Shown here in pieces: positions 7,741 through 55,626 of a stretch of 62,311 nucleotides of DNA (position 1 is the stretch's first letter; each line of letters begins with the position of its first letter). The DNA lies in assembly GCA_964598265.1 (NCBI GenBank), contig CAZRBD010000003.1, positions 1-62,311 on the forward strand. Reading direction: 5' to 3'. This DNA is from an uncultured archaeon. GTDB taxonomy: Archaea; Asgardarchaeota; Lokiarchaeia; Sigyniarchaeales; SOKP01. A program made the position numbers and the translations under genes. Under the pieces are notes generated by a model, which was given only the letters and a program-made list of their open reading frames with translations, searched no databases and was not told where the DNA came from.

Positions 7741-9351
7741 ATGTTTATGGAATTAAAGAATTACAAAGTTTTGGTATCGGATGGTTTAGCTCAAGAGGGA
7801 GTTGAGATATTAAAGAGATTCAAAAATTTTGACATCACAATTAATGATAAAACAAGTAGAGAAGAACTTCTTGAAATTATAGAGCAATTCGATGGAATTA
7901 TCGTTAGGAGTGCTACTAAAATCACTCCAGATATAATTAGAGCGGGAAAAAAATTGAAGGTTATTGTTCGAGCTGGTACGGGTTATGATAACATTAATAT
8001 TGAAGAATGTAATAAACATGGAATTGTTGTTTTAATAACTCCAGTAGGCAATACTAATGCAGTAGTTGAGCTGACAATTGGTTTAATGCTGAATTTTGCG
8101 CGAAATATTTATAAAGCGAACGCTTCTATGCGGGAAGGTAGATGGGATAAAAAATTATTAAGAGGTTCTGAATTACAAGGGAAAACTATAGGTGTTATTG
8201 GATTAGGGAATATTGGAGCCGCTGTGGTAAAAAAATGTCAATCATTTAACATGAATGTCGTGGCTTTCGATAGGTTTGTTCCAAAGAAACGGGGTCAGGA
8301 TTTAGGTGCTGAGTTATTAGATAATTTTGACGATTTTTTAGCTCGATCAGATTATATTACGATTCACGTTCCTTTAACCGCCCAAACAAAAGATTTAATT
8401 AGTTATTCTGAGATAGAAAAAATGAAATCTACTGCGATCATTGTTAATGTTGCTCGTGGAGGAGTCGTAAATGAACAAGCACTATATAAAGCTCTAAAAA
8501 ACAACAAAATTGGAGGAGCTTGTATTGATGTTTTTTCTAAAGAACCAGTTGATCCTAAAGACGTACCATTTATCGAATTAGATAATTGTATTACAACACC
8601 TCATTTAGGGGCTAACACTTATGAGGCTCAAATTGAAGTAGCGAAATTAGCAGCGGAAAGGATAGTCCAAGCTCTTAATTCCAAAATATTCATAGATGCA
8701 GTTAATATTTCCTTCAACATGTCAGAAGAATTGGCTGATTTATATAGGCCTTATATAGAATTAGGCGTTTCTTTAAGTAAATTCATCACACAGTTTAACC
8801 TATCAAAAATCACTAGTGTGAAAATTAAATACAAAGGAGAGATATTTACTAACTTTGAACCAATTAAAGCTGTGATATTGCAATCTCTTTTTGATGGTAG
8901 GTTAATAGATGTTATAACTTATATTAATTTAGAAGAGATTTTAAAAGAAAATGACATTAAAATTGTTTTAGAAAAATTTGAAAAGCCCATTAATTTTGAA
9001 AATTATATAAAAATTTACATCAGGACTGAAGATGGATCCTCAACTAAAATTGCGGGTACTGTTTTTTCAGATCGCCCAAAAATAGTCGAAATAAACGAAT
9101 TTTTTTTTGATCTCGCCCCCACAAATTACATGCTCGTACTTAAAAATAAAGATGTACCAGGAGTCATTGGAAGTATCGGAACATTCTTAGGAAATAAAGG
9201 GATTAATATAGCAGGCTTACAGTGTGGTCGAAAAAAAATGGGAGATATAGCCATTTCCATAGTTACCTTAGACGATCCCGTATCTAAAGAAGATATTAAC
9301 GAATTGAAAAAGTTTGATAATATTATTGATGCTCATGGTATAATTCTCTAA
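7741..9351 (+). CDS. serA: D-3-phosphoglycerate dehydrogenase (long form with C-terminal ACT domain)
   Basis: 2-hydroxyacid dehydrogenase fold with NAD motif GVIGLGNIGAAV and catalytic-region motifs NVARGG and PHLGA. The C-terminal part (VPGVIGSIGTFLGNKGINIAG) is ACT-like. 536 aa. Confidence 0.9.
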   Translation: MFMELKNYKVLVSDGLAQEGVEILKRFKNFDITINDKTSREELLEIIEQFDGIIVRSATKITPDIIRAGKKLKVIVRAGTGYDNINIEECNKHGIVVLITPVGNTNAVVELTIGLMLNFARNIYKANASMREGRWDKKLLRGSELQGKTIGVIGLGNIGAAVVKKCQSFNMNVVAFDRFVPKKRGQDLGAELLDNFDDFLARSDYITIHVPLTAQTKDLISYSEIEKMKSTAIIVNVARGGVVNEQALYKALKNNKIGGACIDVFSKEPVDPKDVPFIELDNCITTPHLGANTYEAQIEVAKLAAERIVQALNSKIFIDAVNISFNMSEELADLYRPYIELGVSLSKFITQFNLSKITSVKIKYKGEIFTNFEPIKAVILQSLFDGRLIDVITYINLEEILKENDIKIVLEKFEKPINFENYIKIYIRTEDGSSTKIAGTVFSDRPKIVEINEFFFDLAPTNYMLVLKNKDVPGVIGSIGTFLGNKGINIAGLQCGRKKMGDIAISIVTLDDPVSKEDINELKKFDNIIDAHGIIL

Positions 9352-9391
9352 TTTCTGGCGTTATATAAAACCTAAAACTCTGAAAAACCCC

Positions 9392-10456
9392 CTATTTTTT
9401 TAGCATGGATATCAACTTTTTAACTATTAAGTTACCCATTTCCCTCGTTGTTAGCGTTTTAAAAGCTTTATTTTTAATATCTATGGTTCTTCCTTCGTTG
9501 AGAGCTTCTTCCACAGAATTATCAATTAAATTTCCAATTTCTGGTGAATTGAATGATTCCTGCATCATTAATTTTACACTTAAAATAGTACCTATTGGAT
9601 TTGCTATATTTTTACCAGCTATGTCTGGGGCAGATCCGTGTATAGGTTCATACATTGAAACTTTTCCTGGATTAATATTTCCACTGGATGCCATTCCTAA
9701 ACTGCCAATGAGGAAGGCACCTTCATCACTAATGATGTCACCAAACATATTCCCTGTAACAACAGTTTGGAAAGAATAAGGAGCACGAATAAGCCATTGG
9801 CAAAAACTATCGATATAAATATCCTCTTTCTGTAAATCAGGATAATTATTTCCAATTATGTGAAAGATTTTACGCCAAAATTGACTTGGTTTTAACACAT
9901 TTGCTTTATCTACTGATGTAATTTTCTTATGTCCCTCATTCTTCGCAAATTCATAAGCATATCGTATAATTCGTTCACACCCTTTTTTAGTGTAAAGCAT
10001 TATACTTTGCGCTCTCTCTTTTGATATTTCTCCTATATCCTTATATATTCCTTCAGTATTTTCTCTTACAAAGGTGATATCAATACCTTTCCCTATAAAT
10101 TCGTCTTTAAGTGGGCATCTATCTCTTAGACTATCATATAACTTAATTGGTCTTAAATTCACATACAAATCTAATTCCTGCCTTATCTTTAAGATTGCTG
10201 ATTCAGCAACTCCGGGCGGTAAATCAGGAAGTCCAATAGCACCAAATAATAATGAATCAGAATTTTTAATAACATCAAATGACTTCTCTGGAAGGTTACT
10301 CCCATATTTTTTCCATATTTTCCCTCCAGCGGGAGCGTCTTTAAATTCGAAATCGAATTCAGTATAATCAGAAATAGTTTTTAATATCTTTAGACCTTCT
10401 TCTACTACTTCTGGACCACATCCATCACCACGGGTGATTGCTATAGTTTTCTTCAT
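9392..10456 (-). CDS. leuB: 3-isopropylmalate dehydrogenase (isocitrate/isopropylmalate dehydrogenase family)
   Basis: IAITRGDGCGPEV near the N-terminus and NMFGDIISDEGAFLIGSLGMASS, followed by HGSAPDIAGKNIANP. It lies in a cluster with leuD, leuC and leuA. Confidence 0.85.
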   Translation of the reverse strand: MKKTIAITRGDGCGPEVVEEGLKILKTISDYTEFDFEFKDAPAGGKIWKKYGSNLPEKSFDVIKNSDSLLFGAIGLPDLPPGVAESAILKIRQELDLYVNLRPIKLYDSLRDRCPLKDEFIGKGIDITFVRENTEGIYKDIGEISKERAQSIMLYTKKGCERIIRYAYEFAKNEGHKKITSVDKANVLKPSQFWRKIFHIIGNNYPDLQKEDIYIDSFCQWLIRAPYSFQTVVTGNMFGDIISDEGAFLIGSLGMASSGNINPGKVSMYEPIHGSAPDIAGKNIANPIGTILSVKLMMQESFNSPEIGNLIDNSVEEALNEGRTIDIKNKAFKTLTTREMGNLIVKKLISMLKK

Positions 10457-14983: not shown

Positions 14984-16018
14984 TCAAAATCGTTTAATTT
15001 TCTTAGGATATGATCTAAAAGGAGTAATAGGTTCTAAACTTATCCAGTCTTCTTGAGTTTCTAATTTAGAGAGTGAACGTAAAAGATCAAAAGTCAACCA
15101 TCGAGTAGCTTGTGGATGGTTTATATATTCCCATAAACTGTAAGGTCCTTGTTCAGCTTTAATAAATTCTACAAACTCCGCAATTCTACTATCCTTAACA
15201 CTTGCTTCAACTCTCCAACATAAATTAAGGATATGCGCAATGTCAAATTTGGCCATATAGGTGATTCTTCCAATTGACTTCTCTAAACCAATTAGTCTAG
15301 CAATTAAAAAACCAAGGTTTGTCCTTAATTTCATATCAGTTCCTAAAATTAAATCAAGTGCTCGTTTAGCTTCTTCACTTATCCTTCTTTTAGGATGATG
15401 CGCCAAGCAAGTCAATACAGCTGTAGTATTCGAACGGCAACCCCATCGAGAATGAGCTAGGCGACGATACCCCGCAATCCCTCCATAATTTTCCGATGCA
15501 ATACCTACTGGCCACGCCCCATCATCTAAACGTTTACTTATCAACCATTCATAAGCTTGTTCTGCTCTTTTATCCTCCGCATACCCACACATTACTAATC
15601 CTAATAATGGAATTGCAGTTTGAATTGGCATCATTTGATATCCCTTTTCTTCATCAACCAATTGATTTTTACCTGGCATAAGCCATGAGCCATCTTCTTG
15701 CTGCCGTGAAAATATGAATTCTGCACCTTTTTGAATGAATGTTTTTTTTAGATCAAAACCTAAATATCCCAATCTTTGTAATGCCATTGAAGTAATTTGA
15801 ATATTATCTCCAACAGCAATGCGACTAAGGCTAAAAGAATCCCAAGCACCACTCGATTTTTGGAGTTTAATTAATTCCGTAATTAATGGATCTTCTTCAC
15901 GGAGTTTTAATAATTCCTTAACTTCAGGATCCTCATCTGATCTCTTAAGTAAATCTTTCAATACTAAATACCTCAAACACGGAGATGGATCTGAAAGTAA
16001 TAGTGGTATCCAAGTCAT
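14984..16018 (-). CDS. QW-repeat alpha/alpha-toroid protein (prenyltransferase / terpene-cyclase-like repeats)
   Basis: Spaced motifs QKSSGAWD, QQEDGSW, RLDDGAW and EQGPYSLW are typical of prenyltransferase/squalene-oxidase repeats. Its ATG overlaps the stop of the upstream 1623-aa gene (ATGA at 16015-16018). Confidence 0.55.
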   Translation of the reverse strand: MTWIPLLLSDPSPCLRYLVLKDLLKRSDEDPEVKELLKLREEDPLITELIKLQKSSGAWDSFSLSRIAVGDNIQITSMALQRLGYLGFDLKKTFIQKGAEFIFSRQQEDGSWLMPGKNQLVDEEKGYQMMPIQTAIPLLGLVMCGYAEDKRAEQAYEWLISKRLDDGAWPVGIASENYGGIAGYRRLAHSRWGCRSNTTAVLTCLAHHPKRRISEEAKRALDLILGTDMKLRTNLGFLIARLIGLEKSIGRITYMAKFDIAHILNLCWRVEASVKDSRIAEFVEFIKAEQGPYSLWEYINHPQATRWLTFDLLRSLSKLETQEDWISLEPITPFRSYPKKIKRF

Positions 16019-19000
16019 GAGATTTCCTCCAAAATATTTTTGATATAAGGAGCAGTTGGAGTGTTTCCTTTTGCTAGCGTCTCTGGTGTCCCGTGTGCTA
16101 TAAGTTTACCCCCATTTGGCCCTGCTCCGGGTCCTAATTCAATTAACCAATCGCAAGACACTAATAGATGAGGATGATGCTCGATAACTATGACAGTATG
16201 TCCATTTTGCACTAGTAATTGCAGAACGTTAACCAACTGTGAAATATCCTCTAAATGTTGTCCGATTGTAGGTTCATCTAAGATGTAAAGCGTTTTTTTT
16301 ATTGATTTTTTACTTAATTCTTTAACGATCTTTAGCCTTTGTGCTTCACCACCCGAAAGTGTGTGAGCGGGTTGATTTAATTGTAGATAACCCAACCCTA
16401 CATCCTGAGTGAATTTTAATTTTGATATAATATTATCGTGTCCATCGAATAATTCAAAAGCCTCATCAATGGTAAGATTATTTACTTCTGGTAAAGTAAT
16501 GTCATTGTATCTAATCTGCCACGCTTCAACTTGAAAACCTGATCCTTTGCATACTTCACATGTTTCCACAATATCAGGTAAGAATTTCATGTCTACTTTG
16601 ATAATTCCACGCCCTTTACAAACTGTGCATCTTTTAGCAAGATTTTTTTCACTTAAACCCAATACCTTTGCATCCTCTGATTCTGCAAATAATTTTAAAA
16701 TCGGGCGTTCTAAATCTAGGAATTTTAATGGGTTTCCGAGTTTCGCCTTTGCTTGATCAATGACAATTGTTTGAGGTAAAGCTCCTTCAATGCTATCATG
16801 TTCACCTGGATCCATTGGCTCTCTCGCTACAGAGGTAGTGTGCTTTATAGGGACGAGAGCCCTTGCTAATGTGTCAATTAATAATGTACTCTTACCAGAA
16901 CCAGATACTCCACATAATCCTACTAATAAACCAAGTGGAATTTCGATTAAATCCCCTTTAAGATTATTAGCTGTTGCACCATAAATCTTAAGCCAATTTT
17001 TGGGTTTCCGACGTGGTGTTTTTACTAAAATTCTCTTTTTCTTATTCAACCAGTCAGCTGTAATAGTTTTTGTTTCCTTTATTTTATTAAGAGAACCTTC
17101 AGCTACGATTTTACCTCCATGAACTCCCGCACCAGGCCCCATATCCATAATATAATCTGCGTTTTCGATAAACATTGGATCATGCTCAATGGTAATTACT
17201 GTATTTCCTTTATCTCTTAAATTTAGCAATACATCGAGCAGAGCTTGAAGCTCTGATGGGTGCAAACCTCTCGAAGGTTCGTCCAATAACACAGTGAGAG
17301 ATGTGAGATCACTTCCAAGCAATCCTGCTAACTTAACGCGTTGAGCCTCTCCTGCTGAAAGGCTTTCAGCAACCCTGTTAAGATTTAAATATCCCAACCC
17401 CGTTTGAATTAAAAATTCTAAACGGGAAATTATTATTTTAAAGCTATTCTTAACGAATTCATACGTAATATTATCTAAAGATTGTCTTTTTAAAATTTTA
17501 TGGAGTTTTATTAAAGGAAGCTCGGATAATTGGTGAATATTAAATCCAAATAAACTAATTGCAAGATATTGAGGACGTAATTTAGTCCCATTACATTCTT
17601 CGCACGGCTCATTATCCGTATAGGTTCCTCCTACATCCCAATCCCTTAACCATTGTTCGTAAAAACCTTTAAATAAAAGAATTTTTTTATATCTCTGTCC
17701 CTTTCTGTTTTCAATTTCTACTGTTAAAGGTTTTTCATCCCCATATAAGAAAGCATTTTTAGCATCTTCTGACATTTCATTCCAAGGAGTTTCAAATCTA
17801 TCAAAACCATAACGATCTGCAATTGCTTGAATAAGATAATACCCGACATTATAAGGCTTACATAAGTATCCCTTTGGAAAAAAACCAGGGGAATACATTG
17901 CTCCTCCACAAAGTGGTTTGTCAGGATGAACAATAAGTTTATTTGGGCTAGGAATTTGAAGGGATCCTACTCCATGACACTTTAAACATGCGGCAGAATA
18001 ATTAGAAGTGATAAAATGTTTAGGTTTTGGAATTGGGATTAATATATTACACTTAATGCAATAAAAGTCTTCCATTCTCTCCATCCAATGATTACAATTA
18101 GGACACATAAGTTCTCCCATATAGGATAAGAGATTTGCTAAATGGAGACTTATATCAGTGACTCTCCCAATTGTATAGCGTACATTAAAAAACCATCCAT
18201 GAACTATCTTTTCTGGTGTAATTAGAGTGGTTATACCAAGGCCGTTGATATTTTCAACTTGTGCTTCGGACGTTTCCTTCGTGCCTTGTCTCTCATACAT
18301 AGATAATGTTTCTAAATATCGGCGTCGGGCTTCCGCTTCTATTGTGTCCATAATTAAGCTCGATTTTCCAGATCCCGATATTCCAGTGACAACGGTGAAT
18401 ACTCTTTTAGGGATTTTAACATTTATATTTTTTAAGTTGTGTATATGAGCGTTTTGAATAACAATTTCTGCCGAAGATGTTTTTCTTTTTATTCTATCTT
18501 TTGTTAATGGTACTATGGACTGTTCCTCCCATAATGCTCTTCCCGTTAAAGAGTCTTTTGCCTTCATCAATCCTTCTAGTGGACCCTCATATACCAAATT
18601 TCCTCCTTTGGGACCAGACCCCGGACCTAAATCTATTATCCAATCCGCAGCTTTTATAACATCAATGTTATGCTCTACAACAACGATTGTAGCTCCTATT
18701 TTTATAAGTTTATCTAATACTGTTAAAAGCCCTGCTAAATCTTGTGGATGAAGACCTGTTGAGGGTTCATCGAGAATGACTAGTTGATTTTTCAATGTAT
18801 CTCTTCCAAGATATTTTGATAATTTTACTCTCTGAGCTTCACCGCCAGAAAGTGTAGGAGATGGCTGTCCTAGAGATAAGTAACCTAAACCAAGCTCGTT
18901 CATTGCTTTAAGCATGCGCTTCGCTGCTGTAAGTTCTCTTTCTGATAAACGATTTTCCTTTTCAAATAATTTTATAATTTCAGAAATTGGTAGATTATAA

Positions 19001-20886
19001 AATTCTGCAATATTGTATTCTTTTTCTCCAAATTTTACATACTCTGATAAAATTTCTTCACAGAAACGTTTTCCATCGCAATCAGAGCAAATAATCCAAT
19101 TGGAAGGTAAATAACGCATCTTTATTTCAAGTGCGCCCATCCCATTACATGTTTCACAAGCACCTTCGGTAGTATTAAATGAATAAAATGTGGGTTTAAA
19201 CCTAGTTGACTTCCCAAATAATTTTCGGATGCTATCTGCAATTTTTGTATAAGTCGCGGGATTAGATCTTGGATTTTTACCAATAGGATCTTGATTTACC
19301 AGTATGGGCTTAATATTAGGATATTCAAGTGCTTTACATCCAATAGACTTTTTTCTCTTGAGGGATTCAAATAATACATCTTCTATTAATGTACTTTTCC
19401 CCGATCCCGATACTCCAGTTACAATCGTTAGCCTATTTAAGGGTAATTTCACGTTAATGTTTTTTAAATTATGCATTGTAGCACCCTTAATTTCGAGAAA
19501 GGTTTTTGATTCAGAACGTCGTTTTGGGATTGGTACTTGTTTCCTCAAGCTAAAATATAACCCTGAAGGGGTATCTACTTTCCATAATTCAGCAGGAGTC
19601 CCAGTAAATATAATTTCACCACCTTCATTCCCTGCTCCAGGACCCATATCAATCACATAATCTGCTGATATGGCTGCTTGCCGGTCATGCTCAATATAAA
19701 TTACAGGACCTGCAAGTTTCTGGAAAAGTGGTATTAATCTTGCGACATCAGCAGGATGTTGACCAATTGTCGGTTCATCAAGAATGTGGGTCACATCCTC
19801 CAGTTCACTCAATATTGCAATAGCTAATCTAACTCTTTGAGACTCTCCTCGAGATAAGGTAGGAGAAACTCTGTCTAAAGTCAAGTACTCTAAACCCACG
19901 GTGTGCAATGCCATTAGTCGTTTTTTTATTTCTTGTAATAATCGATCAGAAATCGGTATATCCTCTCTAGAAAAATGAAAGACAAGATCTCCTACTGATT
20001 TTGTTAATATCTTGGGAAATAATAATCCTTCCCAAGTAACATTGGATGCTAAAGGATGATATCCTGTCTCATTGCAATTCCTACATCCTTTTCCCTTACA
20101 GTGTGGGCATGTTCGCGTAAAATGTTTAGGATCAAGATCTCCGAACCATGTCCCACATTCAACACAAGCAGGAATTCGAGAAATGAGGATTGATTTTGTT
20201 ATACTTTCAATTAATAAGGAGCCTGCACCTATTCCAGAGATGTTCTGAACAATTTCTCGAATATCATTAATTGAACTGCTTGAATCTGCTTGTCCTATTT
20301 TAATTTGAATGTCATGAGGTTCATTGGGATCTAATCTATCCGTTAATGGATTTCCATCCACTTTTAGTGCTTCAACACTAAATTCCTTCTTTAAAAGCTC
20401 AAGAAGGGTTTGATGACTTCCCTTAACATTCTTAACTAGAAGAGCTGAGATTTTTAAGGATTCCGTTTTTATCAGACCATATATTTTGGCGACAATCTCA
20501 TCTTCTTTTAACACAGACAAGTAAGCACCACATACGTGACATTTTCGATCTCCAAATCTAGCATATAAAAGTTTCAATAAAGGAAGAAGTCCCGTCGCAG
20601 ATGCTACAATGGAATTAGGATTACGATTGAGAAGGTTTTGACCTAGTGCTATCGTAGGTCCTAATCCTGAAATGGAGTCTACTTTTGCGGGATTTAAATT
20701 TATCTGGTCTTTATTAACTGAAAATACCTCTAAGAAACGCCGACGAGCTTCTTTATATAATATGTCAAAAATAAGTGATGTCTTTCCTGACCCAGAAACT
20801 CCAGTCACCACCGTGAGTCCATCTCTAATGTTCACGTCGACTGCCTTCAAATTGTGTTCCCGAGCCCCTCGAATCTTGATTTCCAT
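16015..20886 (-). CDS. tandem-fused double UvrA-like protein (four ABC ATPase domains, 1623 aa)
   Basis: Four Walker A motifs (GVSGSGKTSL, GVSGSGKSTL, GISGSGKSSL, GVSGSGKSTL). Four ABC signatures (LSRGESQRVRL, LSGGEAQRVKL, LSAGEAQRVKL, LSGGEAQRLKI). Four Walker B motifs (ILDEPT, ILDEPS, LLDEPS, ILDEPT). UvrA-type Cys4 modules are present (CHVCG, CVECG..CPHCKGKG, CETCNGMG..CSDCDGKR, CPNCN..CIKCN, CLKCHGVG, CEECNGTK, CTVCKGRG..CEVCKGSG). Both halves open with the UvrA N-terminus pattern I(R/Q)xAxxHNLKxxxVxI. Confidence 0.85.
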   Translation of the reverse strand: MEIKIRGAREHNLKAVDVNIRDGLTVVTGVSGSGKTSLIFDILYKEARRRFLEVFSVNKDQINLNPAKVDSISGLGPTIALGQNLLNRNPNSIVASATGLLPLLKLLYARFGDRKCHVCGAYLSVLKEDEIVAKIYGLIKTESLKISALLVKNVKGSHQTLLELLKKEFSVEALKVDGNPLTDRLDPNEPHDIQIKIGQADSSSSINDIREIVQNISGIGAGSLLIESITKSILISRIPACVECGTWFGDLDPKHFTRTCPHCKGKGCRNCNETGYHPLASNVTWEGLLFPKILTKSVGDLVFHFSREDIPISDRLLQEIKKRLMALHTVGLEYLTLDRVSPTLSRGESQRVRLAIAILSELEDVTHILDEPTIGQHPADVARLIPLFQKLAGPVIYIEHDRQAAISADYVIDMGPGAGNEGGEIIFTGTPAELWKVDTPSGLYFSLRKQVPIPKRRSESKTFLEIKGATMHNLKNINVKLPLNRLTIVTGVSGSGKSTLIEDVLFESLKRKKSIGCKALEYPNIKPILVNQDPIGKNPRSNPATYTKIADSIRKLFGKSTRFKPTFYSFNTTEGACETCNGMGALEIKMRYLPSNWIICSDCDGKRFCEEILSEYVKFGEKEYNIAEFYNLPISEIIKLFEKENRLSERELTAAKRMLKAMNELGLGYLSLGQPSPTLSGGEAQRVKLSKYLGRDTLKNQLVILDEPSTGLHPQDLAGLLTVLDKLIKIGATIVVVEHNIDVIKAADWIIDLGPGSGPKGGNLVYEGPLEGLMKAKDSLTGRALWEEQSIVPLTKDRIKRKTSSAEIVIQNAHIHNLKNINVKIPKRVFTVVTGISGSGKSSLIMDTIEAEARRRYLETLSMYERQGTKETSEAQVENINGLGITTLITPEKIVHGWFFNVRYTIGRVTDISLHLANLLSYMGELMCPNCNHWMERMEDFYCIKCNILIPIPKPKHFITSNYSAACLKCHGVGSLQIPSPNKLIVHPDKPLCGGAMYSPGFFPKGYLCKPYNVGYYLIQAIADRYGFDRFETPWNEMSEDAKNAFLYGDEKPLTVEIENRKGQRYKKILLFKGFYEQWLRDWDVGGTYTDNEPCEECNGTKLRPQYLAISLFGFNIHQLSELPLIKLHKILKRQSLDNITYEFVKNSFKIIISRLEFLIQTGLGYLNLNRVAESLSAGEAQRVKLAGLLGSDLTSLTVLLDEPSRGLHPSELQALLDVLLNLRDKGNTVITIEHDPMFIENADYIMDMGPGAGVHGGKIVAEGSLNKIKETKTITADWLNKKKRILVKTPRRKPKNWLKIYGATANNLKGDLIEIPLGLLVGLCGVSGSGKSTLLIDTLARALVPIKHTTSVAREPMDPGEHDSIEGALPQTIVIDQAKAKLGNPLKFLDLERPILKLFAESEDAKVLGLSEKNLAKRCTVCKGRGIIKVDMKFLPDIVETCEVCKGSGFQVEAWQIRYNDITLPEVNNLTIDEAFELFDGHDNIISKLKFTQDVGLGYLQLNQPAHTLSGGEAQRLKIVKELSKKSIKKTLYILDEPTIGQHLEDISQLVNVLQLLVQNGHTVIVIEHHPHLLVSCDWLIELGPGAGPNGGKLIAHGTPETLAKGNTPTAPYIKNILEEIS

Positions 20887-20903: not shown

Positions 20904-23408
20904 TTATTTGAGATAAGGACCAGTTTTAGAGTTTTTATTACTTTTAATTTTTTCTGGAGTACCTTTCGTAATAATTTCCCCCCCTTTAGGACCACCTTCA
21001 GGCCCTAATTCAATAATGTAATCAGTAAAGGATAGAATGTCAGGGTCATGCTCTATAATAATCACACTATTTCCTTCTTGGACTAATTGCTCTAATAATT
21101 CCATTAATTTCCTGACATCATAAAAAGATAATCCAATCGTAGGTTCATCTAAAATATAAAGAGATTTTGATTTTCGAGCACGTCCCAGTTCTTTTGCGAG
21201 TTTTATTCGCTGTGCTTCTCCTCCACTGAGGGTAGGAGCTGGTTGACCTAAGGTGATATATCCCATTCCTATTTCTTCAAGAATCTTAAGAATTTTCAAA
21301 ATACCCGGTTGTGATTTAAATAAGTCGAGTGCCTCGGAAACTGTTTGGTCTAACACGTCTGCGATTGTTTTTCCTTTATATTTTATTTCTAAAATTTCAG
21401 TTTTATATCTTTGACCTTTACATTCTTTGCACGGTATTGTTATGGCACTTAAAAATGATACTTGAATATCTTTTATTCCATCCCCTTTACAAATTGGACA
21501 CCTTCCTCTATCTGAATTGAAAGAAAAGTGCCCTGCTACAAATTTTTTCTTTATTGCTTCGGGCAATTTTGCAAAGACGTTTCTTATTTTATCCCAAATG
21601 CCAATATATGAGATTGGCATAGATCTTCTTGTCCTCCCTATAGGTCTTTGATTCACAACAATAACCTCATCAATATTTTCCCAACCATGTATGGATCCAG
21701 TAAATTCTAAAAGATCCTCTCCATTCACAAATTCCTCCTCAGATTCTTGAGTTGTTTTACCTTTTTTTACGGCTTCCCGCGTAAAATGTGGTTTTAGTAA
21801 TGGAACGAGTGTATCCTGAATTAATGAACTTTTACCTGAACCAGACACCCCACATATGCCAACCATCATTCCTAATGGGATTTTCACTGAGATATTCTTG
21901 AGATTGTTAGTGCTAACATTCGTGATCGAAAGATATTTAGTATCATTATTGGTTATTCTACGGTCTTTTATGGATTTTTCTGGCAATGAAATTTTTCCAG
22001 CCATGAATTGGCCTGTATGTGAATCTTTAACTTTAGTGATATCTTCAAGTTTACCATGAAATACTATCTCCCCTCCTTTAATACCTGCATCTGGGCCAAT
22101 ATCAATAATCTCGTCCGCTATTTCTATAAACCGTTTATCATGTTCGACAACAATTACAGTATTACCTTGTTCTTTTAGTTTAATTAGTAGTTGAATCAAA
22201 GATTCTTTCTCTTTTTCATGTAAACTCATACTTGGTTCATCAAGAATATATATGAGAGAATCGATGCCTGCATCTAAATGCGTCATAAGTGCTAATCTTT
22301 GCTGTTCTCCGCCACTAAGAGTGGGAAGAGTTCTATTGAGATGCATGTAAGATAACCCAACGTTTACCATATTTTGGAGGCGTTTGAGAATTTTATCAAT
22401 CAATGCTTTCCCTTGCTCCGTCTTTATTTGCTTATCACTCAGGTTTTCTAAGAATTCAATTATATCATCTATTACTATAATAGCTAATTCTCCAATATGT
22501 TTTCCTGCGATTTTTATATTTCTTGCTTGATCATTAATTCTAAATCCTTGGCATTCATCGCATTTTTGCTTGGTCATATAATTCTTGGTTATTTTATTTC
22601 TCCGATATGTACTTACGCTAGTACTCATAGCTCTCTCTAAGTGAGGGATAATCCCTTCGTATACTCTTTGTTTCATAATTCCTGAGAAATTTTTAGACTC
22701 CATTCTGAATGATAATCTTTTTCCTCCACTCCCGTGAAGATATATATTTCGGATCTTTTCTGGTAAGTCTTTATAAGGTGTATCTATATCGAAATCATAA
22801 AAACCCCCCAATTGTTCAACCCATCTAGTTTGATCAGCAAAACAAGCAGAACCTGCTTTTGTTATCTCGACAAGGTTTCTATTATAGTCTTGTACTATAT
22901 TATCTTCTGTGAAATGCATTGTATATCCTCTCCCTTTACATTCTAAGCACATTCCTGAAGGCTCATTGAAAGAGAAATGTTTAATCTCCACACGATCTCT
23001 CACTAAACCGCACAATTCGCACTCTAAGTTCTCATCTACTGAGATTTTACAAATAGGACACAATAATTCACCTTCAATGGCATATAACATTCTAAGTAAG
23101 TTGTAAATTATTGTCTTAGTGCCGATAGTTGATCTAGGATTGAATGCTCTCGTCGTCCTCTGTTCTACTGCTATGGTTGGACTTAAACCTTCAATTAAAT
23201 CGAATGGTTTTTCATCTTCTAATTTAGGAGGAAATCCAATTGCTTGGAGATATCGATTCATTCCTTCATTAAATATGATATCGAATGCTAAACTTGATTT
23301 TCCCGAACCAGAAACACCTGTTATTAGTATAATTTTCTTTTTCGGGATATTAACATTGATATTTTTTAGGTTATGAATCCTTGCCCCTACAACTCTAATT
23401 TCATCCAT
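20904..23408 (-). CDS. UvrA-like ABC ATPase lacking the UvrB-binding domain (class II / UvrA2-like, 834 aa)
   Basis: MDEIRVVGARIHNLKNINVNIP, two Walker A motifs (GVSGSGKSSL twice), signatures LSGGEQQRLAL and LSGGEAQRIKL, and zinc modules. Only about 30 aa separate CPICK...CELCG from FSFNEPSGMCLECKGRG, the position where canonical UvrA carries its roughly 140-aa UvrB-binding domain. Confidence 0.85.
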   Translation of the reverse strand: MDEIRVVGARIHNLKNINVNIPKKKIILITGVSGSGKSSLAFDIIFNEGMNRYLQAIGFPPKLEDEKPFDLIEGLSPTIAVEQRTTRAFNPRSTIGTKTIIYNLLRMLYAIEGELLCPICKISVDENLECELCGLVRDRVEIKHFSFNEPSGMCLECKGRGYTMHFTEDNIVQDYNRNLVEITKAGSACFADQTRWVEQLGGFYDFDIDTPYKDLPEKIRNIYLHGSGGKRLSFRMESKNFSGIMKQRVYEGIIPHLERAMSTSVSTYRRNKITKNYMTKQKCDECQGFRINDQARNIKIAGKHIGELAIIVIDDIIEFLENLSDKQIKTEQGKALIDKILKRLQNMVNVGLSYMHLNRTLPTLSGGEQQRLALMTHLDAGIDSLIYILDEPSMSLHEKEKESLIQLLIKLKEQGNTVIVVEHDKRFIEIADEIIDIGPDAGIKGGEIVFHGKLEDITKVKDSHTGQFMAGKISLPEKSIKDRRITNNDTKYLSITNVSTNNLKNISVKIPLGMMVGICGVSGSGKSSLIQDTLVPLLKPHFTREAVKKGKTTQESEEEFVNGEDLLEFTGSIHGWENIDEVIVVNQRPIGRTRRSMPISYIGIWDKIRNVFAKLPEAIKKKFVAGHFSFNSDRGRCPICKGDGIKDIQVSFLSAITIPCKECKGQRYKTEILEIKYKGKTIADVLDQTVSEALDLFKSQPGILKILKILEEIGMGYITLGQPAPTLSGGEAQRIKLAKELGRARKSKSLYILDEPTIGLSFYDVRKLMELLEQLVQEGNSVIIIEHDPDILSFTDYIIELGPEGGPKGGEIITKGTPEKIKSNKNSKTGPYLK

Positions 23409-23461: not shown

Positions 23462-23788
23462 TTAGACAGAATTTCTTATTGTTTCCCAAGCTTTAGTTTC
23501 TAAATTAGACCATTCCTGAATTGAAGCAGTTTCTGTAATTTTTACACTCCCTCCTAAACAACTTAAGACCCTTTCAAAAACTTCCGTCTTTTTCACTACC
23601 AATCCTAGTATCATTGGGAAAGGCATTAGTTTCATATAATAGTAAAAAAAGCCTAACCCTGAGCATAATCCTAAGATCCTAGGTTCTGAAAGTTCAATGT
23701 TATAATACGCAAGAACTTTGCTTAGACTTGACAACTGACAATTTGCACCAGACATATGCTTAAAATCTTCTATAACTATTCTAACCAA
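23462..23788 (-). CDS. short BtrH_N-like (papain/C39-like fold) paralog, N-terminal part only
   Basis: FKHMSGANCQLSSLSKVLAYYNIELSEPRILGLCSGLGFFYY parallels IGCHCESSAMRDLFEFYGYTITEAMAFGLDATMGFGFF of the 377-aa neighbour. It ends before the HFGGH segment. Confidence 0.45.
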   Translation of the reverse strand: MVRIVIEDFKHMSGANCQLSSLSKVLAYYNIELSEPRILGLCSGLGFFYYYMKLMPFPMILGLVVKKTEVFERVLSCLGGSVKITETASIQEWSNLETKAWETIRNSV

Positions 23789-23801: not shown

Positions 23802-24227
23802 CTATTTTATATTCGGATTTATTTTATTTCCACAATCAAAACATTCTGCATCGTGAATACAAATTTCACCATTACACTTAGGACAAGTGTATAGTTTTTC
23901 TTGCTCTTGGAGCCATTTTTCAGCCCCTATTATTTTAATCCTTTTTAAATTGCCTATAAAACTTAGAAAATATTTTTCTTGATAGCGACTATCAATGTTT
24001 TTTAAATTCTGGCAAGGGAATTTATCGCACTCGAAACAAAATTCAATTTCTTTTTTCCTTAGCATTAGACAATCTCTCTTAATGAAAGAACAATTTTTAT
24101 TTCGAATTCTACAGCCTTTACAACCTGATTTACGTCCTCTCTCTTTTAATAGATCTTTCTTTAATAATAAGTAGGATCTACACGCACCACAGTACATTCC
24201 ACAAGGAGCTGCTAAATTATTTTTCAC
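23802..24227 (-). CDS. Cys-rich DUF3795-like protein
   Basis: The N-terminal motif APCGMYCGACRSY and multiple further CxxC pairs (CKGCRIRNKNC, CFECDKFPC, CPKCNGEIC, CFDCG) match my memory of the DUF3795 family. Confidence 0.6.
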   Translation of the reverse strand: MKNNLAAPCGMYCGACRSYLLLKKDLLKERGRKSGCKGCRIRNKNCSFIKRDCLMLRKKEIEFCFECDKFPCQNLKNIDSRYQEKYFLSFIGNLKRIKIIGAEKWLQEQEKLYTCPKCNGEICIHDAECFDCGNKINPNIK

Positions 24228-24241
24228 TCTTTTTTCACCAC

Positions 24242-25375
24242 TTATAGTTTAATTTTTGATAATTTTTTGAATAAACCCTCTTCATTGGTAAGTATGAATA
24301 GAGCAATATTGTGTAATTCGTCTAAATCTATATGGGCTAAACAATCGTCATTGTATTCTTCCGAGACATTTTTTAAAGTCTCTGCTATTAAAGTCCATTT
24401 TTGAGCTACTTCAGTTATTATTGGTATAACACTTTCAATGATCTTAAATTCTTCCTTACTCCACGCTCTTTGGCCTTCTCTTAACTCCGGGTGATTAAGT
24501 AATTCTTCCAAGAATATCTTGTATAAACTCCGGAAAGCTGCGCCACCGGTCCCCCATGTTTCAATATATCCATGTAATAATTCAAACATCGTTTTGGCTA
24601 GTGAAACATCCTGACCTGATGCATTTTTTCTTTTTCCTTGCAATTTCTCTTTCCATTCAAGGATAGAGTTAACAAATAATTTTAACCCTTGAACTCCATT
24701 ATTATTTACGGAAGGTCTTAACATGTTATTTACTACTTTTTGGATTGATAATTTCACTCCTGCTGCTAACGGAGGATGCTTTCCATCTGGACGTCTCGAC
24801 ATGGAGAACTGAGCATTACTCGGCTGCATAAACTTTGGTCCAAATTCCGAGTTTCTTCCTTTCTTAAGAATACTAATTGATACTTCTTGAAATCCCTTAA
24901 ATTCGGAATCTCCCACATATGCAACTTCTTTTTCTTCATCATAACCTGCGAGCGAAATAGCATGACCGCCAAAATGGAATTCCCCTTGATGCTCAAAATA
25001 AGGTAAATACCCCATATCAATCTTCAGGATTAATGGAATATTTTGATCTAACATTTTTTTTGACTCTTCCCAAGCCTTATCAGCACTGGAAAAGGATTGT
25101 TTCCTGAAAATGATTCCTAATAATCGACAAGCTAATGAATTTGGTTCAATTATTCCTTGCTTACCTCCTAGAAAAAATTGAACTTCAGACTCAGGAATAA
25201 AAGACATAAGATTGGTAGTATCGAAAAATCCAAATCCCATTGTGGCATCCAAGCCAAATGCCATTGCCTCTGTAATAGTATATCCATAGAATTCAAATAA
25301 ATCTCTCATAGCAGATGACTCACAATGACACCCAATTCTGTGGATAAAGTTATTTACCATATGCTTCTGGACCAA
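24242..25375 (-). CDS. BtrH N-terminal domain + DUF4872-like protein
   Basis: GCHCESSAMRDLFEFYGY...FGLDATMGFGFF...IPLILKIDMGYLPYF...HFGGHAISLAGYDEEKEVAYVGDS matches the remembered BtrH_N consensus (Cys...His of a papain-like fold). It has a roughly 180-aa helical C-terminal domain. The 5' end overlaps the PadR gene by 26 nt. Confidence 0.65.
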   Translation of the reverse strand: MVQKHMVNNFIHRIGCHCESSAMRDLFEFYGYTITEAMAFGLDATMGFGFFDTTNLMSFIPESEVQFFLGGKQGIIEPNSLACRLLGIIFRKQSFSSADKAWEESKKMLDQNIPLILKIDMGYLPYFEHQGEFHFGGHAISLAGYDEEKEVAYVGDSEFKGFQEVSISILKKGRNSEFGPKFMQPSNAQFSMSRRPDGKHPPLAAGVKLSIQKVVNNMLRPSVNNNGVQGLKLFVNSILEWKEKLQGKRKNASGQDVSLAKTMFELLHGYIETWGTGGAAFRSLYKIFLEELLNHPELREGQRAWSKEEFKIIESVIPIITEVAQKWTLIAETLKNVSEEYNDDCLAHIDLDELHNIALFILTNEEGLFKKLSKIKL

Positions 25376-25943
25376 CTTTACCTCCTCCCTTTTTAATTTC
25401 TTCTAACACCCAGTTTAGAAACTCAACGTCAATTCCTAATATTTTAATGGGATGTAAAAACAAACCCCGTACATTTAATGGCATATGAGAGCTTTCATCT
25501 AGCATTTCCTCCAATTCTTTTTTATGTTTTATAATAGTATTTAAAGAATAGGATATTGATTCAATTTGCTCCTCGTGAGATAATATTGGAAGCATAGAAA
25601 AAGCTACATAAAAATCTTCATCATTTTTTCCTATAAATTCTTTTATAACATTTACAACCTTTTCCCTTAAAACTCTGGAACCTTTTTCTGTTATATTATA
25701 GACCTTAAGTGTTCTATTATCAACTTCTTCTATCCATTTATCTGTTAATCCTTTTTTTTCTAAACTCTTGATTACTCGATAAATCGAAGATTTACCTATA
25801 TTAGTCCAATTTCTCATGCCACGTTCTTCAATCCTTTTATTGATATTATAGGCATGACTAGGATTTTCAGCTATCAATCCCAGAACAACGAATTCAGAAT
25901 GATTCAGTGATATCATATTGTTCCTTTCTTCCAGGGGAGACAT
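25350..25943 (-). CDS. PadR family transcriptional regulator (long form with C-terminal domain)
   Basis: VVLGLIAENPSHAYNINKRIEERGMRNWTNIGKSSIYRVIKSLEKKGL is a typical PadR wHTH. It is the first gene of the co-directional cluster. Confidence 0.8.
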   Translation of the reverse strand: MSPLEERNNMISLNHSEFVVLGLIAENPSHAYNINKRIEERGMRNWTNIGKSSIYRVIKSLEKKGLTDKWIEEVDNRTLKVYNITEKGSRVLREKVVNVIKEFIGKNDEDFYVAFSMLPILSHEEQIESISYSLNTIIKHKKELEEMLDESSHMPLNVRGLFLHPIKILGIDVEFLNWVLEEIKKGGGKVGPEAYGK

Positions 25944-25970: not shown

Positions 25971-25990
25971 ATGGTCTCATATGAGACCAT
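25971..25990. promoter_or_regulatory. perfect 20-bp palindrome ATGGTCTCATATGAGACCAT, candidate PadR operator
   Basis: Read directly from the sequence. It lies 28-47 nt upstream of the PadR ATG (25943) and downstream of a TATA-like tttaaatataaa on the minus strand (about 26016-26027). An extra half-site CATATGAGA is repeated at 25993-26001. Confidence 0.5.
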
Positions 25991-26442
25991 TCCATATGAG
26001 AATATAAGGACAATTTATATTTAAATATATTTGTTTTAATAAAATTTATTTTAAAAAGTCAAAAAACTTTCTCTAAACAGCTTAAACTATTTATAGCGGT
26101 GGCAGTATAAAAAATAGCTAGGTTGAGGTTAACCTCAATACCCTCCCGCCATTTTTTGTATAAGAATGAATGTTTTAATCCATCTATCTCTTGGATTTTA
26201 ATGGTCGAATACCATTTCCAATCAGGAATGATAATATTTTGGAATACACCACATCTATATGGTTTTCCAAAAAAAGTACTTTACTTTTAATAAGAACTCA
26301 AAAATTTAAAGGAATTGTGGAAAATGGTAAACTTCGTAATTACTTAGAAGTTATAATTTATACATATGTTAATATTATTGCCTTTTTAATTTCATTAATT
26401 ACACTTTCAATTTTAAGACATAATTATAGTAGTGGTATAGTC

Positions 26443-27153
26443 ATGACAAGTATTTCTAATTCTACTCTTTCTAATCAAATCGGAACCTTAAAAGAAAAAT
26501 CCCTCCATGCTGAGTTAAAAGATTGGCTTAAAATACCTGGAGATAAGATTGAGACACCTATTGATGGTTATATAATTGATATTGTAAGAGGGAAACTTCT
26601 TATTGAAATCCAAACTCAAAACTTTTCCGCAATCAGGAAAAAACTTGAAAACCTTCTTAAACGTTATGAAGTTCGGTTAATATACCCAATAGTGCAAAAA
26701 AAATGGATTGTTTGTTTGGATCAAACCGGAGCACAAGTAACTAGGAGAAGATTATCTCCTAAACATAATTCATATGCAAATATTTTTGAGGAGTTAATCT
26801 GGATTCCTCATATTATTATGAATTCTAATCTGTCAATTGAAGCATTAATTGTTCATGTAGAAGAAACAAGGCTTAACAACGGTAAAGGGAGTTGGAGAAG
26901 AAAAGGTTGGAGTATCGTAGATCGAAAATTGGTTAATATAATAGACCAAAAGAGATTTCATGAACCTAAGGATTTTTTAACCTTAATTCCTAAAGACTTA
27001 AAATTTCCATTTACTAATTTTGAACTTTCTAAGGCTTTAAAAAAATCAATTGGATTAGCTCGAAAAATGACATATTGTTTGAGAAAAATAAATAATCTGA
27101 AAGTGATTGGTAAAAAAGGAAAAGCCTTTTTATATGACTTGAAACTTACCTAA
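26443..27153 (+). CDS. PD-(D/E)xK-like nuclease-fold protein (hypothetical)
   Basis: SLHAELKDWLKIPGDKIETPIDGYIIDIVRGKLLIEIQTQNFSAIRKKL contains a D...D-x8-E-x-Q arrangement resembling restriction-endonuclease-like cores. The ORF track opens at a TTG (26191), but the first ATG (26443) directly precedes the conserved-looking core. Confidence 0.45.
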   Translation: MTSISNSTLSNQIGTLKEKSLHAELKDWLKIPGDKIETPIDGYIIDIVRGKLLIEIQTQNFSAIRKKLENLLKRYEVRLIYPIVQKKWIVCLDQTGAQVTRRRLSPKHNSYANIFEELIWIPHIIMNSNLSIEALIVHVEETRLNNGKGSWRRKGWSIVDRKLVNIIDQKRFHEPKDFLTLIPKDLKFPFTNFELSKALKKSIGLARKMTYCLRKINNLKVIGKKGKAFLYDLKLT

Positions 27154-51941: not shown

Positions 51942-53411
51942 ATGCCGACAGAACCATCTGACCTTATTTTTAAATCCGCATTAGAAGCAGCAAGGGCAAT
52001 TCTAAGAGGTGAAATATCCTCCCTAGAACTCACTAAACATATACTAGAACGTATTGAGAAATATAATCCGGCTCTCAATGCAGTCGTCACCCTCCTCAAA
52101 GATGAAGCTCTTAATAGAGCTCGCGCTGCAGATGAAGCATTGGCAAAAGGAGAATTATGGGGTCCTTTACATGGCATCCCATGCTCAGTTAAAGATACAC
52201 TCGAAATAGCTGATGTTCTTACAACATCTGGATCACCTGAATTAGCTACTCATGTACCAAAAAAAGATGCAATTGTTGTTGAACGATTGCGTGGGGCAGG
52301 AGCTATCATCATAGGTCATACTAATGTACCCCTATTTGCTGCTGACTGGCAGAGTTACAATAAGGTCTTTGGCACAACAAATAATCCCTGGGATCATAAG
52401 CGTACTCCTGGTGGCTCAACAGGAGGTGGAGCAGCAGCAGTTGCCGCTGGTTTAAGCTATTTATCAATAGGAAGTGATATTGGAGGATCTATCCGGATCC
52501 CTGCTCATTTTTGTGGCTTATACGGTCATAAACCTAGCCTGAATGTTGTCCCGATGCGTGGTCAAATCCCACCTCCACCAGAAATCCTGATACCGCCTGC
52601 AGATCTAGCTGTGATTGGACCACTCGCACGAAGTGCAGGTGATCTCAAATTAGCTCTCAAAATCATTGGAGGCCCTGATCCTGAGAATTCAACCGCGTAT
52701 AGCTGGACCTTACCACCTGCCCGAGGAACTCGTTTATCTGATTATCGTGTTGGTTATGTTTTGGATGATCCTCTCTGTCCGGTTACTTCTGAAGTGGAAG
52801 AGATGTTAATTCGCACCATTAAACCACTTCGTGAAGCAGGAGCAGATTTAGAAGAAGGTTGGCCACCTGGGGTCAATCCTTCTGATCAATATGAAATTTA
52901 TCGTTTCTTATTATCATCTACATATGCCAATGAGCTACAAAATGAACGATTGGATGAATTTCGTGAACGCGCTTTAAAACGAGACGGAAGCGAAGAGGCG
53001 ATGCGTGCTTGGGCATGGACTGCCCCTCACAAATACTACCAGGCAATCAGCAGTGCACGGATGAAAGCCAGAGCAATATGGCAAGATTACTTCCGCACTC
53101 ACGATGTATTTCTCCTCCCTACAGCATTTATTCCCGCATTTCCTCACGATCATAGTGAACCCGCTGAAAAGCGCCTCCTAGACACTCTAGAAGGCCCAAG
53201 ACCATATTATGATCTATTATTTTGGATATCATTTGCAACATTGACTGGTCTCCCAGCAACCACGGCTCCAATTGGACTAACAAATGATGGATTACCCGTA
53301 GGTATTCAAATCATAGGGCCTTACTTAGAAGATGCGACTCCGATAGATTTCGCTGGAAAGTTGGCGGATATAATTGGGGAATTCCAACCGCCAGAAGGTT
53401 ACAAAATTTAA
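51942..53411 (+). CDS. amidase (amidase-signature family)
   Basis: AS motif GGSTGGGAAAVAAG...SIGSDIGGSIRIPA. Visibly more GC-rich than the flanks. Confidence 0.9.
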   Translation: MPTEPSDLIFKSALEAARAILRGEISSLELTKHILERIEKYNPALNAVVTLLKDEALNRARAADEALAKGELWGPLHGIPCSVKDTLEIADVLTTSGSPELATHVPKKDAIVVERLRGAGAIIIGHTNVPLFAADWQSYNKVFGTTNNPWDHKRTPGGSTGGGAAAVAAGLSYLSIGSDIGGSIRIPAHFCGLYGHKPSLNVVPMRGQIPPPPEILIPPADLAVIGPLARSAGDLKLALKIIGGPDPENSTAYSWTLPPARGTRLSDYRVGYVLDDPLCPVTSEVEEMLIRTIKPLREAGADLEEGWPPGVNPSDQYEIYRFLLSSTYANELQNERLDEFRERALKRDGSEEAMRAWAWTAPHKYYQAISSARMKARAIWQDYFRTHDVFLLPTAFIPAFPHDHSEPAEKRLLDTLEGPRPYYDLLFWISFATLTGLPATTAPIGLTNDGLPVGIQIIGPYLEDATPIDFAGKLADIIGEFQPPEGYKI

Positions 53412-53509
53412 TTCCAAGAGCTCAATAAGTCTAAAAACATCTAGGAGCATAGAAAAAGTAGGTTATAGAAGATAATGAGTTTGAAGTGGTATAACAATTA
53501 CATTACATT

Positions 53510-54562: not shown

Positions 54563-54602
54563 GATTATCTAGATGGTAAGTAATAATTATCATAAAAATT
54601 TA

Positions 54603-55121
54603 TTAGTTATACTTTAAACTTGAGGATTCATCTTTATAAATTGTTGTTAAAAGTTCCAAAATGGCTAGAACTGAAGCATCGTTAGCCTCAACACCCTCTC
54701 TAAAATATTTTTTAGTTATAATACCAATTACATGTGGAAATAATGAATTTGGTACGTCGATTAGTCTGTTATTAATTATAACTAGATGTTTTAACTCATG
54801 CAAAAAATGAATAGAAGGGGGAATTTCTCCAAGGTTATATATATTTAAATTTAAAGCTTGAACATGCCCATCCTTTATAGCAATCCAATGTTTTTCATCT
54901 ACATCACCTACTGAACTTGGCCAATAATCTTTTGACCATTGCTCCTCAATATTAAAAAAGTTGTTTTCTATGGCAAATATTCTATATATATGATATCTTT
55001 GATTTTTTAAATTTCCTGTTTTATTTGGGGTTAATAATAGGGGCGCTCTACTTAATTCAAAAACGGAGAAACCGAAACAAATGGTGAAGGATACATCAAG
55101 AAATACTAACAAAACACACAC
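54603..55121 (-). CDS. small leucine-rich-repeat protein
   Basis: VQALNLNIYNLGEIPPSIHFLHELKHLVIINNRLIDVPNSL fits two LxxLxLxxNxLxxIP repeats. Only a GTG start is available. Confidence 0.35.
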   Translation of the reverse strand: MCVLLVFLDVSFTICFGFSVFELSRAPLLLTPNKTGNLKNQRYHIYRIFAIENNFFNIEEQWSKDYWPSSVGDVDEKHWIAIKDGHVQALNLNIYNLGEIPPSIHFLHELKHLVIINNRLIDVPNSLFPHVIGIITKKYFREGVEANDASVLAILELLTTIYKDESSSLKYN

Positions 55122-55323
55122 CGAACATCGCTAATCTCTTGAAAAAATAGTTATAGTCAATAACTTTTTTGCTAAAAATCATAATCTAAACAAGTTACAC
55201 ACTCCTTCCCCCTTATTTTATAAAATCGTAAACTTTATATACTCAAATTAATATTGATATATTAAGTATTGTCAACTAAGTCTTGTCAATATAAAAGTAT
55301 TTTTTTTTTAAAACACAAAAATT

Positions 55324-55596: not shown

Positions 55597-55626
55597 AGGG
55601 AGGAAAACGAGAAATACTTAAACTCC

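Follow-up and report, generated by a model that had tools for sequence, protein, structure and literature searches.

A tandem UvrA with one UvrB-binding domain and one insertion domain on different halves, encoded next to an alpha/alpha-toroid protein in an Asgard archaeon: a candidate single-chain pseudo-dimer

What would a UvrA do whose two copies are joined in one chain, each lacking a different one of the usual accessory domains? This question is raised by a 1623-aa open reading frame (ORF), here called the double UvrA, in a stretch of 62,311 nucleotides from an uncultured archaeon (Asgardarchaeota; Lokiarchaeia; Sigyniarchaeales; SOKP01; GenBank assembly GCA_964598265.1, contig CAZRBD010000003.1, positions 1 to 62,311), referred to below as the window. 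The gene is followed by one for a small alpha/alpha-toroid protein (the toroid protein). Two long-standing questions in bacterial nucleotide excision repair (NER) are which complex, UvrA2UvrB1 or UvrA2UvrB2, acts as the damage sensor, and how a symmetric UvrA dimer picks the damaged strand and passes one UvrB the lesion (PMC11985968). Both would be easier to address with a natural, covalently ordered UvrA that has one UvrB-binding domain (UBD) and one insertion domain (ID) in separate units. We read the double UvrA as a single-chain UvrA pseudo-dimer that would serve as a lesion sensor and work with the toroid protein, and give this reading a probability of roughly 0.55.

Integrity and motif content of the double UvrA

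The earlier note on this DNA, made from its letters and a list of its ORFs, had described a covalent double UvrA with four Walker A, four signature and four Walker B motifs. All of these were located in the ORF: Walker A motifs at residues 29, 491, 835 and 1326, signatures at residues 344 (LSRGE), 679, 1176 (LSAGE) and 1510, and four Walker B D-E pairs, together with four H-loop His residues and twelve CxxC pairs. The protein scored 1341 bits with TIGR00630 and carried the label UvrA in Pfam and NCBIfam. The second unit started at residue 807 (EIVIQNAHIHNLKN; DNA about 18468), close to the restart that had been placed near residue 815 (DNA 18440). Coordinates of the features are given in Table 1.

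The ORF was confirmed by an 85-kb ENA scaffold and two independent Logan assemblies, each of which encodes an identical protein. Contigs from three individual runs at 19-34x depth reproduced positions 17900-19100 with 0 differences, and a related strain from a different study had 15 substitutions and no indel in the same interval. The junction at about 18440-18500, which the note had singled out for checking, thus lay in a stretch without a stop or indel in independent assemblies. A database search returned at least 117 full-length homologues (1600-1655 aa) with 55-90% identity and 100% coverage, and their linker length was kept. These results leave practically no probability for an assembly or frameshift artefact that merged two adjacent uvrA genes. 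No support for such an artefact was found, although a few copies in Nanopore-derived metagenome-assembled genomes (MAGs; L071) are frameshifted, and the explanation is already refuted.

Domain content of the two halves

The N-half aligned with Mycobacterium tuberculosis UvrA over 28-312, and the next aligned block began at 489, showing that the UBD is kept and the ID is missing; the ID region held 41 query residues compared with 176 in the M. tuberculosis protein. In M. tuberculosis UvrA, the UBD spans 129-255 and the ID 290-411 (PMC3167621), and the UvrB-binding segment of the N-half aligned to 129-255. The reverse was seen in the C-half, which aligned with Thermotoga maritima UvrA over 11-129 and then 248-916; residues 130-247 were skipped, showing loss of the UBD and retention of the ID. 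In a four-way MAFFT alignment with Escherichia coli UvrA, both deletions were clean excisions between zinc-module cysteines.

When excised segments were searched with Pfam, PF17760 (UvrA_inter) matched the N-half alone with 27.1 bits (cut-off 23.3); E. coli UvrA, as a control, scored 135 bits, and other doubled UvrAs scored 81-157 bits. Within the double UvrA, PF17755 (UvrA_DNA-bind) matched the C-half alone with 35.9 bits. The AlphaFold2 (AF2) model of the N-half, with a predicted local distance difference test (pLDDT) of 83 and a predicted template-modelling score (pTM) of 0.78, had its best Foldseek match in 3uwx_A, the UvrA chain of a UvrA-UvrB crystal (template-modelling score, TM, 0.79). 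Alignments and profile matches thus bore out both domain assignments of the earlier note, a UvrB-binding-like insert with almost no ID in the N-half and an ID without that insert in the C-half. The profile mapping that it had proposed found halves of different content, so its reservation that the two might be identical in content falls away.

The nucleotide-binding domains (NBDs) of the C-half also carried changes. In its NBD-I, at residues ~886-905, the whole family had lost the Q-loop Gln (replaced by P/S/T near residue 891) along with the NPRS motif, with Walker A, Walker B and H-loop intact; in its NBD-II, the SPIGRTPRSNPATY motif was lost or degenerate.

Conservation and age of the asymmetry

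Slot lengths and residue conservation were compared across the 117 full-length homologues. In the N-half, the UBD slot measured 122-134 aa and the ID slot exactly 5 aa (117/117); in the C-half, the lengths were 12-22 aa (UBD) and 123-126 aa (ID). At all four sites, 117/117 homologues had the Walker A Lys, the Walker B D-E pair and the H-loop His, the 24 zinc cysteines (12 CxxC pairs) were kept in 115-117 of the 117, and the signature variants LSRGE (N-half) and LSAGE (C-half) were fixed in the family. Mean pairwise identity was 61% overall, 63-72% in the NBD segments, 66% in the ID and 39.7% in the UBD, the fastest-evolving folded domain. The linker span (residues 760 to 835) was 73-77 aa long in the homologues, with a poorly kept sequence (31.5%). 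Because the difference in architecture is invariant across these homologues, the asymmetry appears to be under selection, which argues for an obligate asymmetric unit and supports the obligate asymmetry between fused halves that the earlier note had suggested.

Over 642 shared columns, the two halves were 43% and 42% identical to E. coli UvrA, whereas identity between the halves was 36%. The 834-aa UvrA encoded 17 nt upstream of the double UvrA was 38.5% and 41% identical to the two halves. Since the halves are nearer to E. coli UvrA than to each other, the units diverged long ago, with no recent duplication; judged by these identities, they are old, separately specialised units.

The third UvrA gene immediately upstream in the window would fit an alternative without pairing between the two units, in which the chain oligomerises or pairs with the 834-aa UvrA and the asymmetry is mere domain loss. 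However, that gene is missing from most lineages with a double UvrA, and in each of the 117 homologues the chain has a single UBD, a single ID and a linker of kept length. Reciprocal loss together with the kept linker length is hard to explain unless the two units have a fixed pairing, and we consider this alternative improbable.

The toroid protein

The toroid protein is a single domain of 344 aa. Its gene lies directly downstream of that for the double UvrA, the ATG of the former overlapping the stop codon of the latter (ATGA). It matched PF13243 (SQHop_cyclase_C-like) with an E value of 4e-10, and its profile matched squalene-hopene cyclase (SHC) 494-592 with an E value of 2e-18. The AF2 model (pLDDT 83) was a single alpha/alpha toroid (alpha6/alpha6 barrel), and QW-like repeats were found at residues 51, 105 and 162; the protein has the QW-repeat alpha/alpha-toroid fold that marks a terpene cyclase. 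Foldseek returned class II terpene cyclases, thioester domains and TED domains with E values of 5e-5 to 1e-3 and TM scores of 0.33-0.50, a likeness at the level of the fold only. This fold is shared with the class II terpene cyclase/prenyltransferase superfamily (SHC, MstE, drimenyl-PP synthase) and with the C3/alpha2M thioester domains.

The catalytic DxDD motif of terpene cyclases was missing from the toroid protein and was present in only 8 of 186 homologues. The two-domain (beta-gamma) cyclase architecture was likewise not found in this single 344-aa domain. A CGEQ-like thioester reading of its GCRSN segment was also rejected, as the fourth position of CRS[N/S/T] varies and no CGEQ-type motif is present.

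Mean column identity of the toroid protein was 70%, with an invariant patch made up of Y184, R185, H189, S190, G193, C194, R195, T198, C204 and H208, plus C267. The Cys and His residues of this set (H189, C194, C204, H208, C267) presumably recall the zinc sites of LanC and prenyltransferase toroids. One 95%-identical homologue was labelled LCGC14.

In a scan of species-representative genomes, 228 genomes encoded a relative of the toroid protein, and the best 80 loci were examined. These belonged to Asgard archaea, Bathyarchaeia and Chloroflexota, with single bins of Aminicenantes, Zixibacteria and Patescibacteria. An ORF of at least 1500 aa ended at the toroid start in 56 of the 80 loci, with a 4-nt overlap in 49 of the 56. 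Among the remaining loci, 16 of the 80 were cut by contig ends and a few were frameshifted in Nanopore-derived MAGs (L071). The toroid gene was also downstream in distant members from Promethearchaeota (L004), Lokiarchaeota (L005) and an Aggregatilineales bacterium (L006), and it was next to a 42% identical double UvrA (P0242) with an 8-nt overlap. All-against-all clustering of the flanking ORFs gave only two universal families, the UvrA-like proteins and the toroid protein.

Under either of the two leading readings discussed below, the toroid protein almost certainly functions together with the double UvrA, and the gene arrangement suggests that the two proteins would associate physically. 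The earlier note, which pointed to the third UvrA beside the fusion, had overlooked this partner, whose gene is strictly kept and translationally coupled. A toroid fold coupled to a DNA-repair ATPase is, to our knowledge, undescribed.

At one Bathyarchaeota locus (L065; bin16, CP070784.1), a 612-aa ORF (8166-10004) preceded the toroid gene with the usual 4-nt overlap. It matched C-half residues ~260-816; where the remainder would be expected, there was a 667-aa ORF on the opposite strand. Either the copy has decayed or the variant is truly shorter.

Proposed function and alternatives

Cryo-electron microscopy (cryo-EM) of the M. tuberculosis proteins showed a UvrA2UvrB1-DNA intermediate with UvrB on the UBD of one protomer. 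The "support-ID" of this UvrB-bound protomer must leave the DNA, UvrB binding and the ID-DNA contact being mutually exclusive there; the "recognition-ID" of the opposite protomer holds the flipped base, and each UvrB touches the UBD and signature II of opposite protomers (PMC11985968). The one-UBD/one-ID layout of the double UvrA mirrors this division of labour. A unit without an ID can be expected to function because E. coli UvrA without residues 290-400 still supports repair, with poor damage discrimination (PMC3025350).

In the reading that we favour, the two UvrA units, joined by a linker of ~25 residues, would pair within one chain. The ID of the C-unit, with its roles in lesion recognition and DNA clamping, would bind damaged or adducted DNA, and the double UvrA, as an ABC ATPase of the UvrA type, would sense DNA lesions. 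One docking site, composed of the N-unit UBD and the C-unit signature II, would be offered to a single partner molecule, and the toroid protein would act as an obligate accessory subunit. The docked partner would most likely be the UvrB of the host, because the UBD is kept in every member, because Asgard archaea have the bacterial UvrABC system according to a review (PMC12993045), and because the fast evolution of the UBD fits re-adaptation to the UvrB of new hosts after horizontal transfer.

Several points weigh against this reading. The intramolecular pairing of the units is an inference. The ligand of the UBD may have changed, since the Pfam match is weak (27 bits compared with 135 bits for E. 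coli UvrA). The UvrA fold is no proof of NER, because the class II UvrA Ecm16 confers resistance without the NER proteins UvrB and UvrC. The C-half NBD-I, without its Q-loop Gln, may bind ATP without hydrolysis as in asymmetric ABC proteins, leaving one ATP site non-hydrolytic. This reading also gives no account of what the toroid protein does. Finally, tblastn with E. coli UvrB and UvrC, confined to the window and ~1.4 Mb of flanks of 83 loci, found nothing.

The lack of uvrB and uvrC in the window and those flanks would fit a second reading, which we take as a serious alternative of lower probability. Here the double UvrA and the toroid protein would be a self-contained, horizontally transferred two-gene system for DNA surveillance; like the class II UvrAs Ecm16 and DrrC, it would protect DNA or handle adducts independently of UvrB and UvrC. 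The UvrA units would detect or dislodge a DNA ligand or adduct, and the former UBD, now a relic, would recruit the toroid protein as a possibly Zn- or thiol-dependent enzyme that binds, sequesters or processes a bulky hydrophobic adduct or DNA-bound xenobiotic. Consistent with this are the strict co-inheritance and translational coupling of the toroid protein, its invariant H189, C194, C204, H208 and C267, the strong divergence of the UBD from canonical UBDs and the precedent of Ecm16. Toroids of the superfamily enclose hydrophobic substrates (the terpene cyclase matches in Foldseek and profile searches), and the gene context resembles a xenobiotic response, with PadR, a methyltransferase, glyoxalase, DinB_2 and a beta-lactamase fold in Asgard archaea and TetR, acetyltransferases and glyoxalase near P0242. 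However, docking to a toroid protein conserved at 70% predicts a conserved UBD, and the UBD is the fastest-evolving domain. Moreover, no biosynthetic gene cluster was found nearby, the flanking "detox" genes were not kept outside Asgard archaea, and the missing DxDD also speaks against a toroid enzyme of the cyclase kind.

A component of MADS-like anti-phage defence was suggested by PADLOC, in which the double UvrA scored 400 bits with mad3 and 167 bits with mad8. E. coli UvrA, run as a control, scored 342 and 124 bits, so these matches reflect generic UvrA NBD similarity and the mad3/mad8 identity was rejected. The neighbours had no defence-family matches and the surroundings were housekeeping genes (leu operon, PGDH, pyruvate kinase, DnaK), and we regard a defence role as very unlikely.

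If the single-chain pseudo-dimer is real, cryo-EM and single-molecule studies would have in it an asymmetric reagent supplied by nature, and its existence would count as evidence from evolution that a single UBD with a single ID suffices. The module is spread widely among uncultivated lineages from sediment, Asgard archaea (relatives of eukaryotes) among them. Its toroid protein might represent a new accessory or effector for sensors of the UvrA type. A toroid enzyme recruited through the UBD would, if true, be a new effector class for such sensors.

Relation to known and other doubled UvrAs

Class I UvrAs (Bacillus stearothermophilus 2R6F/3UWX, T. maritima 3PIH, M. tuberculosis 3ZQJ/9GA2-5) have the same unit fold, with NBD-I, NBD-II and three Zn modules, and share with the units of the double UvrA the way in which UBD and ID sprout from signature domain I. 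Class I UvrAs were also the best matches in sequence and structure; both halves scored 549-582 bits against class I UvrAs compared with ~390-405 bits against UvrA2 and Ecm16. The two NBDs of a class I unit were found twice, giving four NBDs with the Q-loop Gln of C-unit NBD-I as the exception, and the twelve CxxC pairs gave each unit three zinc modules, one of them the C-terminal zinc finger. However, a class I protein is a homodimerising chain of ~940 aa with UBD and ID on every protomer, whereas the double UvrA is a 1623-aa tandem fusion with the UBD on the N-unit only and the ID on the C-unit only. It differs further in its LSRGE/LSAGE variants, the missing Q-loop Gln and its obligate toroid-protein neighbour.

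Class II UvrAs (Deinococcus radiodurans UvrA2 2VF7, Ecm16 7SH1, DrrC) have the layout of the C-half and of the 834-aa neighbour. The absence of a UBD that defines this class does not hold for the double UvrA on account of its N-half (PF17760 and matches to UBD-containing structures). The name "class III" was reportedly given by Goosen and Moolenaar 2008 to a duplicated class II UvrA. Such a protein has a UBD in neither unit and an ID in both, whereas the N-unit of the double UvrA has a UBD and no ID; the double UvrA is therefore no duplicated class II UvrA of the kind that the earlier note had mentioned. The chlamydial-type UvrA of ~1800 aa (NCBIfam NF001885) is also distinct, with a score of 896 bits for the double UvrA against a cut-off of 3054 bits.

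When 1.84 billion cluster representatives were searched with the N-half, the best 150 matches were mostly 1570-2340 aa long. They were typed by landmark spacing with regular expressions, an approximate method that was spot-checked with Pfam and placed the ID of P0283 in the wrong half. About 25 representatives had two UBDs and one ID (P0258 and P0283, Pfam-checked), about 22 had two of each (P0255), and about 20 had two IDs and no UBD, the layout of a duplicated class II (P0288, with PF17755 twice and no PF17760). One UBD with two IDs was exemplified by P0291, and roughly 8-10 representatives shared the layout of the double UvrA family, with a lone UBD in one unit and a lone ID in the other. 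Both members of the last type examined beyond the close family (L006, P0242) had a toroid neighbour; P0258, the sole examined member of another architecture, had none. Judged from this sampling, the fusion of UvrAs is in itself no novelty, and doubled UvrAs, of which the double UvrA is the minimal reciprocal version, have repeatedly lost one ID. In the open literature, we found no paper describing doubled UvrAs or their domain diversity, and the layout with one UBD and one ID in trans and a toroid partner appears to be undescribed.

Among the matches P0241-P0390, UvrA-like proteins that were doubled or longer still (up to 2343 aa) were numerous, with at least five domain complements.

Distribution and neighbouring genes

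Full-length homologues of the double UvrA were found in Promethearchaeota (Lokiarchaeota), Thor-, Hod-, Hermod- and Odinarchaeota, Bathyarchaeota and Chloroflexota/Anaerolineae. Judged by its closest relatives and by source samples from marine sediment, the window belongs to a Lokiarchaeum-like Asgard archaeon. The module of double UvrA and toroid protein occurred in Chloroflexota and other bacteria at 52-57% identity, so the layout is not confined to archaea. The 834-aa UvrA (TIGR00630, 869 bits; PF17755, 59 bits) had orthologues of at least 67% identity in Promethearchaeota-type loci only; it was missing from Bathyarchaeia, Chloroflexota and some Asgard loci, and L005 and L006 were without it. 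By this distribution, it is a lineage-specific accessory of Asgard loci and no core part of the assembly, contrary to the place that the note had given it.

Table 1. Features of the double UvrA locus, with positions in the window
Feature	Position	Strand	Extent	Remarks
Toroid protein (QW-repeat alpha/alpha toroid)	14984-16018	-	344 aa	
Double UvrA ORF	16015-20886	-	1623 aa	Four NBDs, six zinc modules
N-half	18469-20886	-	Residues 1-806	UBD present, ID absent; signature I LSRGE, Arg invariant
C-half	16015-18468	-	Residues 807-1623	UBD absent, ID present; signature I LSAGE
UBD homologue	20167-20529	-	Residues ~120-240	Between Zn-module-1 cysteines C116/C119 and C241/C244
Zinc knuckle CPHCKGKGCRNC	20074-20109	-	Residues 260-271	N-half Zn module 2, ID excised
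Inter-unit linker	18451-18531	-	Residues ~786-812	C-terminal extension of N-half past canonical UvrA end
Collapsed UBD slot of C-half	18049-18105	-	Residues 928-946	12 aa between Zn-module-1 CxxC pairs
Insertion (DNA-binding) domain of C-half	17605-17976	-	Residues ~971-1094	PF17755
Class II-type UvrA	20904-23408	-	834 aa	UBD absent, ID present
BtrH_N fragment	23462-23788	-	108 aa	Upstream
DUF3795 protein	23802-24227	-		Upstream, Asgard version of locus
BtrH_N/DUF4872 protein	24242-25375	-	377 aa	Upstream, Asgard version of locus
PadR regulator	25350-25943	-		Upstream, same strand, Asgard version of locus

The methyltransferase, BtrH_N/DUF4872 and DUF3795 genes were present in 19-25 of ~80 loci, all Asgard. 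The 108-aa ORF matched only the first ~80 residues of BtrH_N and appears to be a shortened duplicate of the N-terminal part of the BtrH_N/DUF4872 gene next to it. It occupies the site at which the Asgard loci L004 and L005 have a 223-aa methyltransferase.

Just upstream of the PadR gene, an inverted repeat with 10-bp arms (TCTCATATGG, 7-nt spacer, TCATATGAGA; 25975-26001, - strand) is a candidate operator that could serve autoregulation of the gene string from PadR to the toroid protein. A scan for sigma-70 promoters and terminators, a model ill-suited to an archaeon, gave no more matches than shuffled sequence, and Rfam found no RNA family anywhere in the window. A DUF8091 protein (26191-27153, + strand) adjoins the PadR end and recurs near the module at a Lokiarchaeota locus (L005, 4257-4955).

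The wider window held ordinary chromosomal genes, namely the leu operon, PGDH, aldehyde:ferredoxin oxidoreductase, pyruvate kinase and DnaK. The GC content was 0.41-0.42 at 52000-58000 compared with ~0.30 elsewhere, in a region with an amidase gene and DnaK/Hsp70 (56225-58129). Archaeal Hsp70 is commonly of bacterial origin, and the high GC content at 52000-58000 may reflect a transferred or highly expressed gene.

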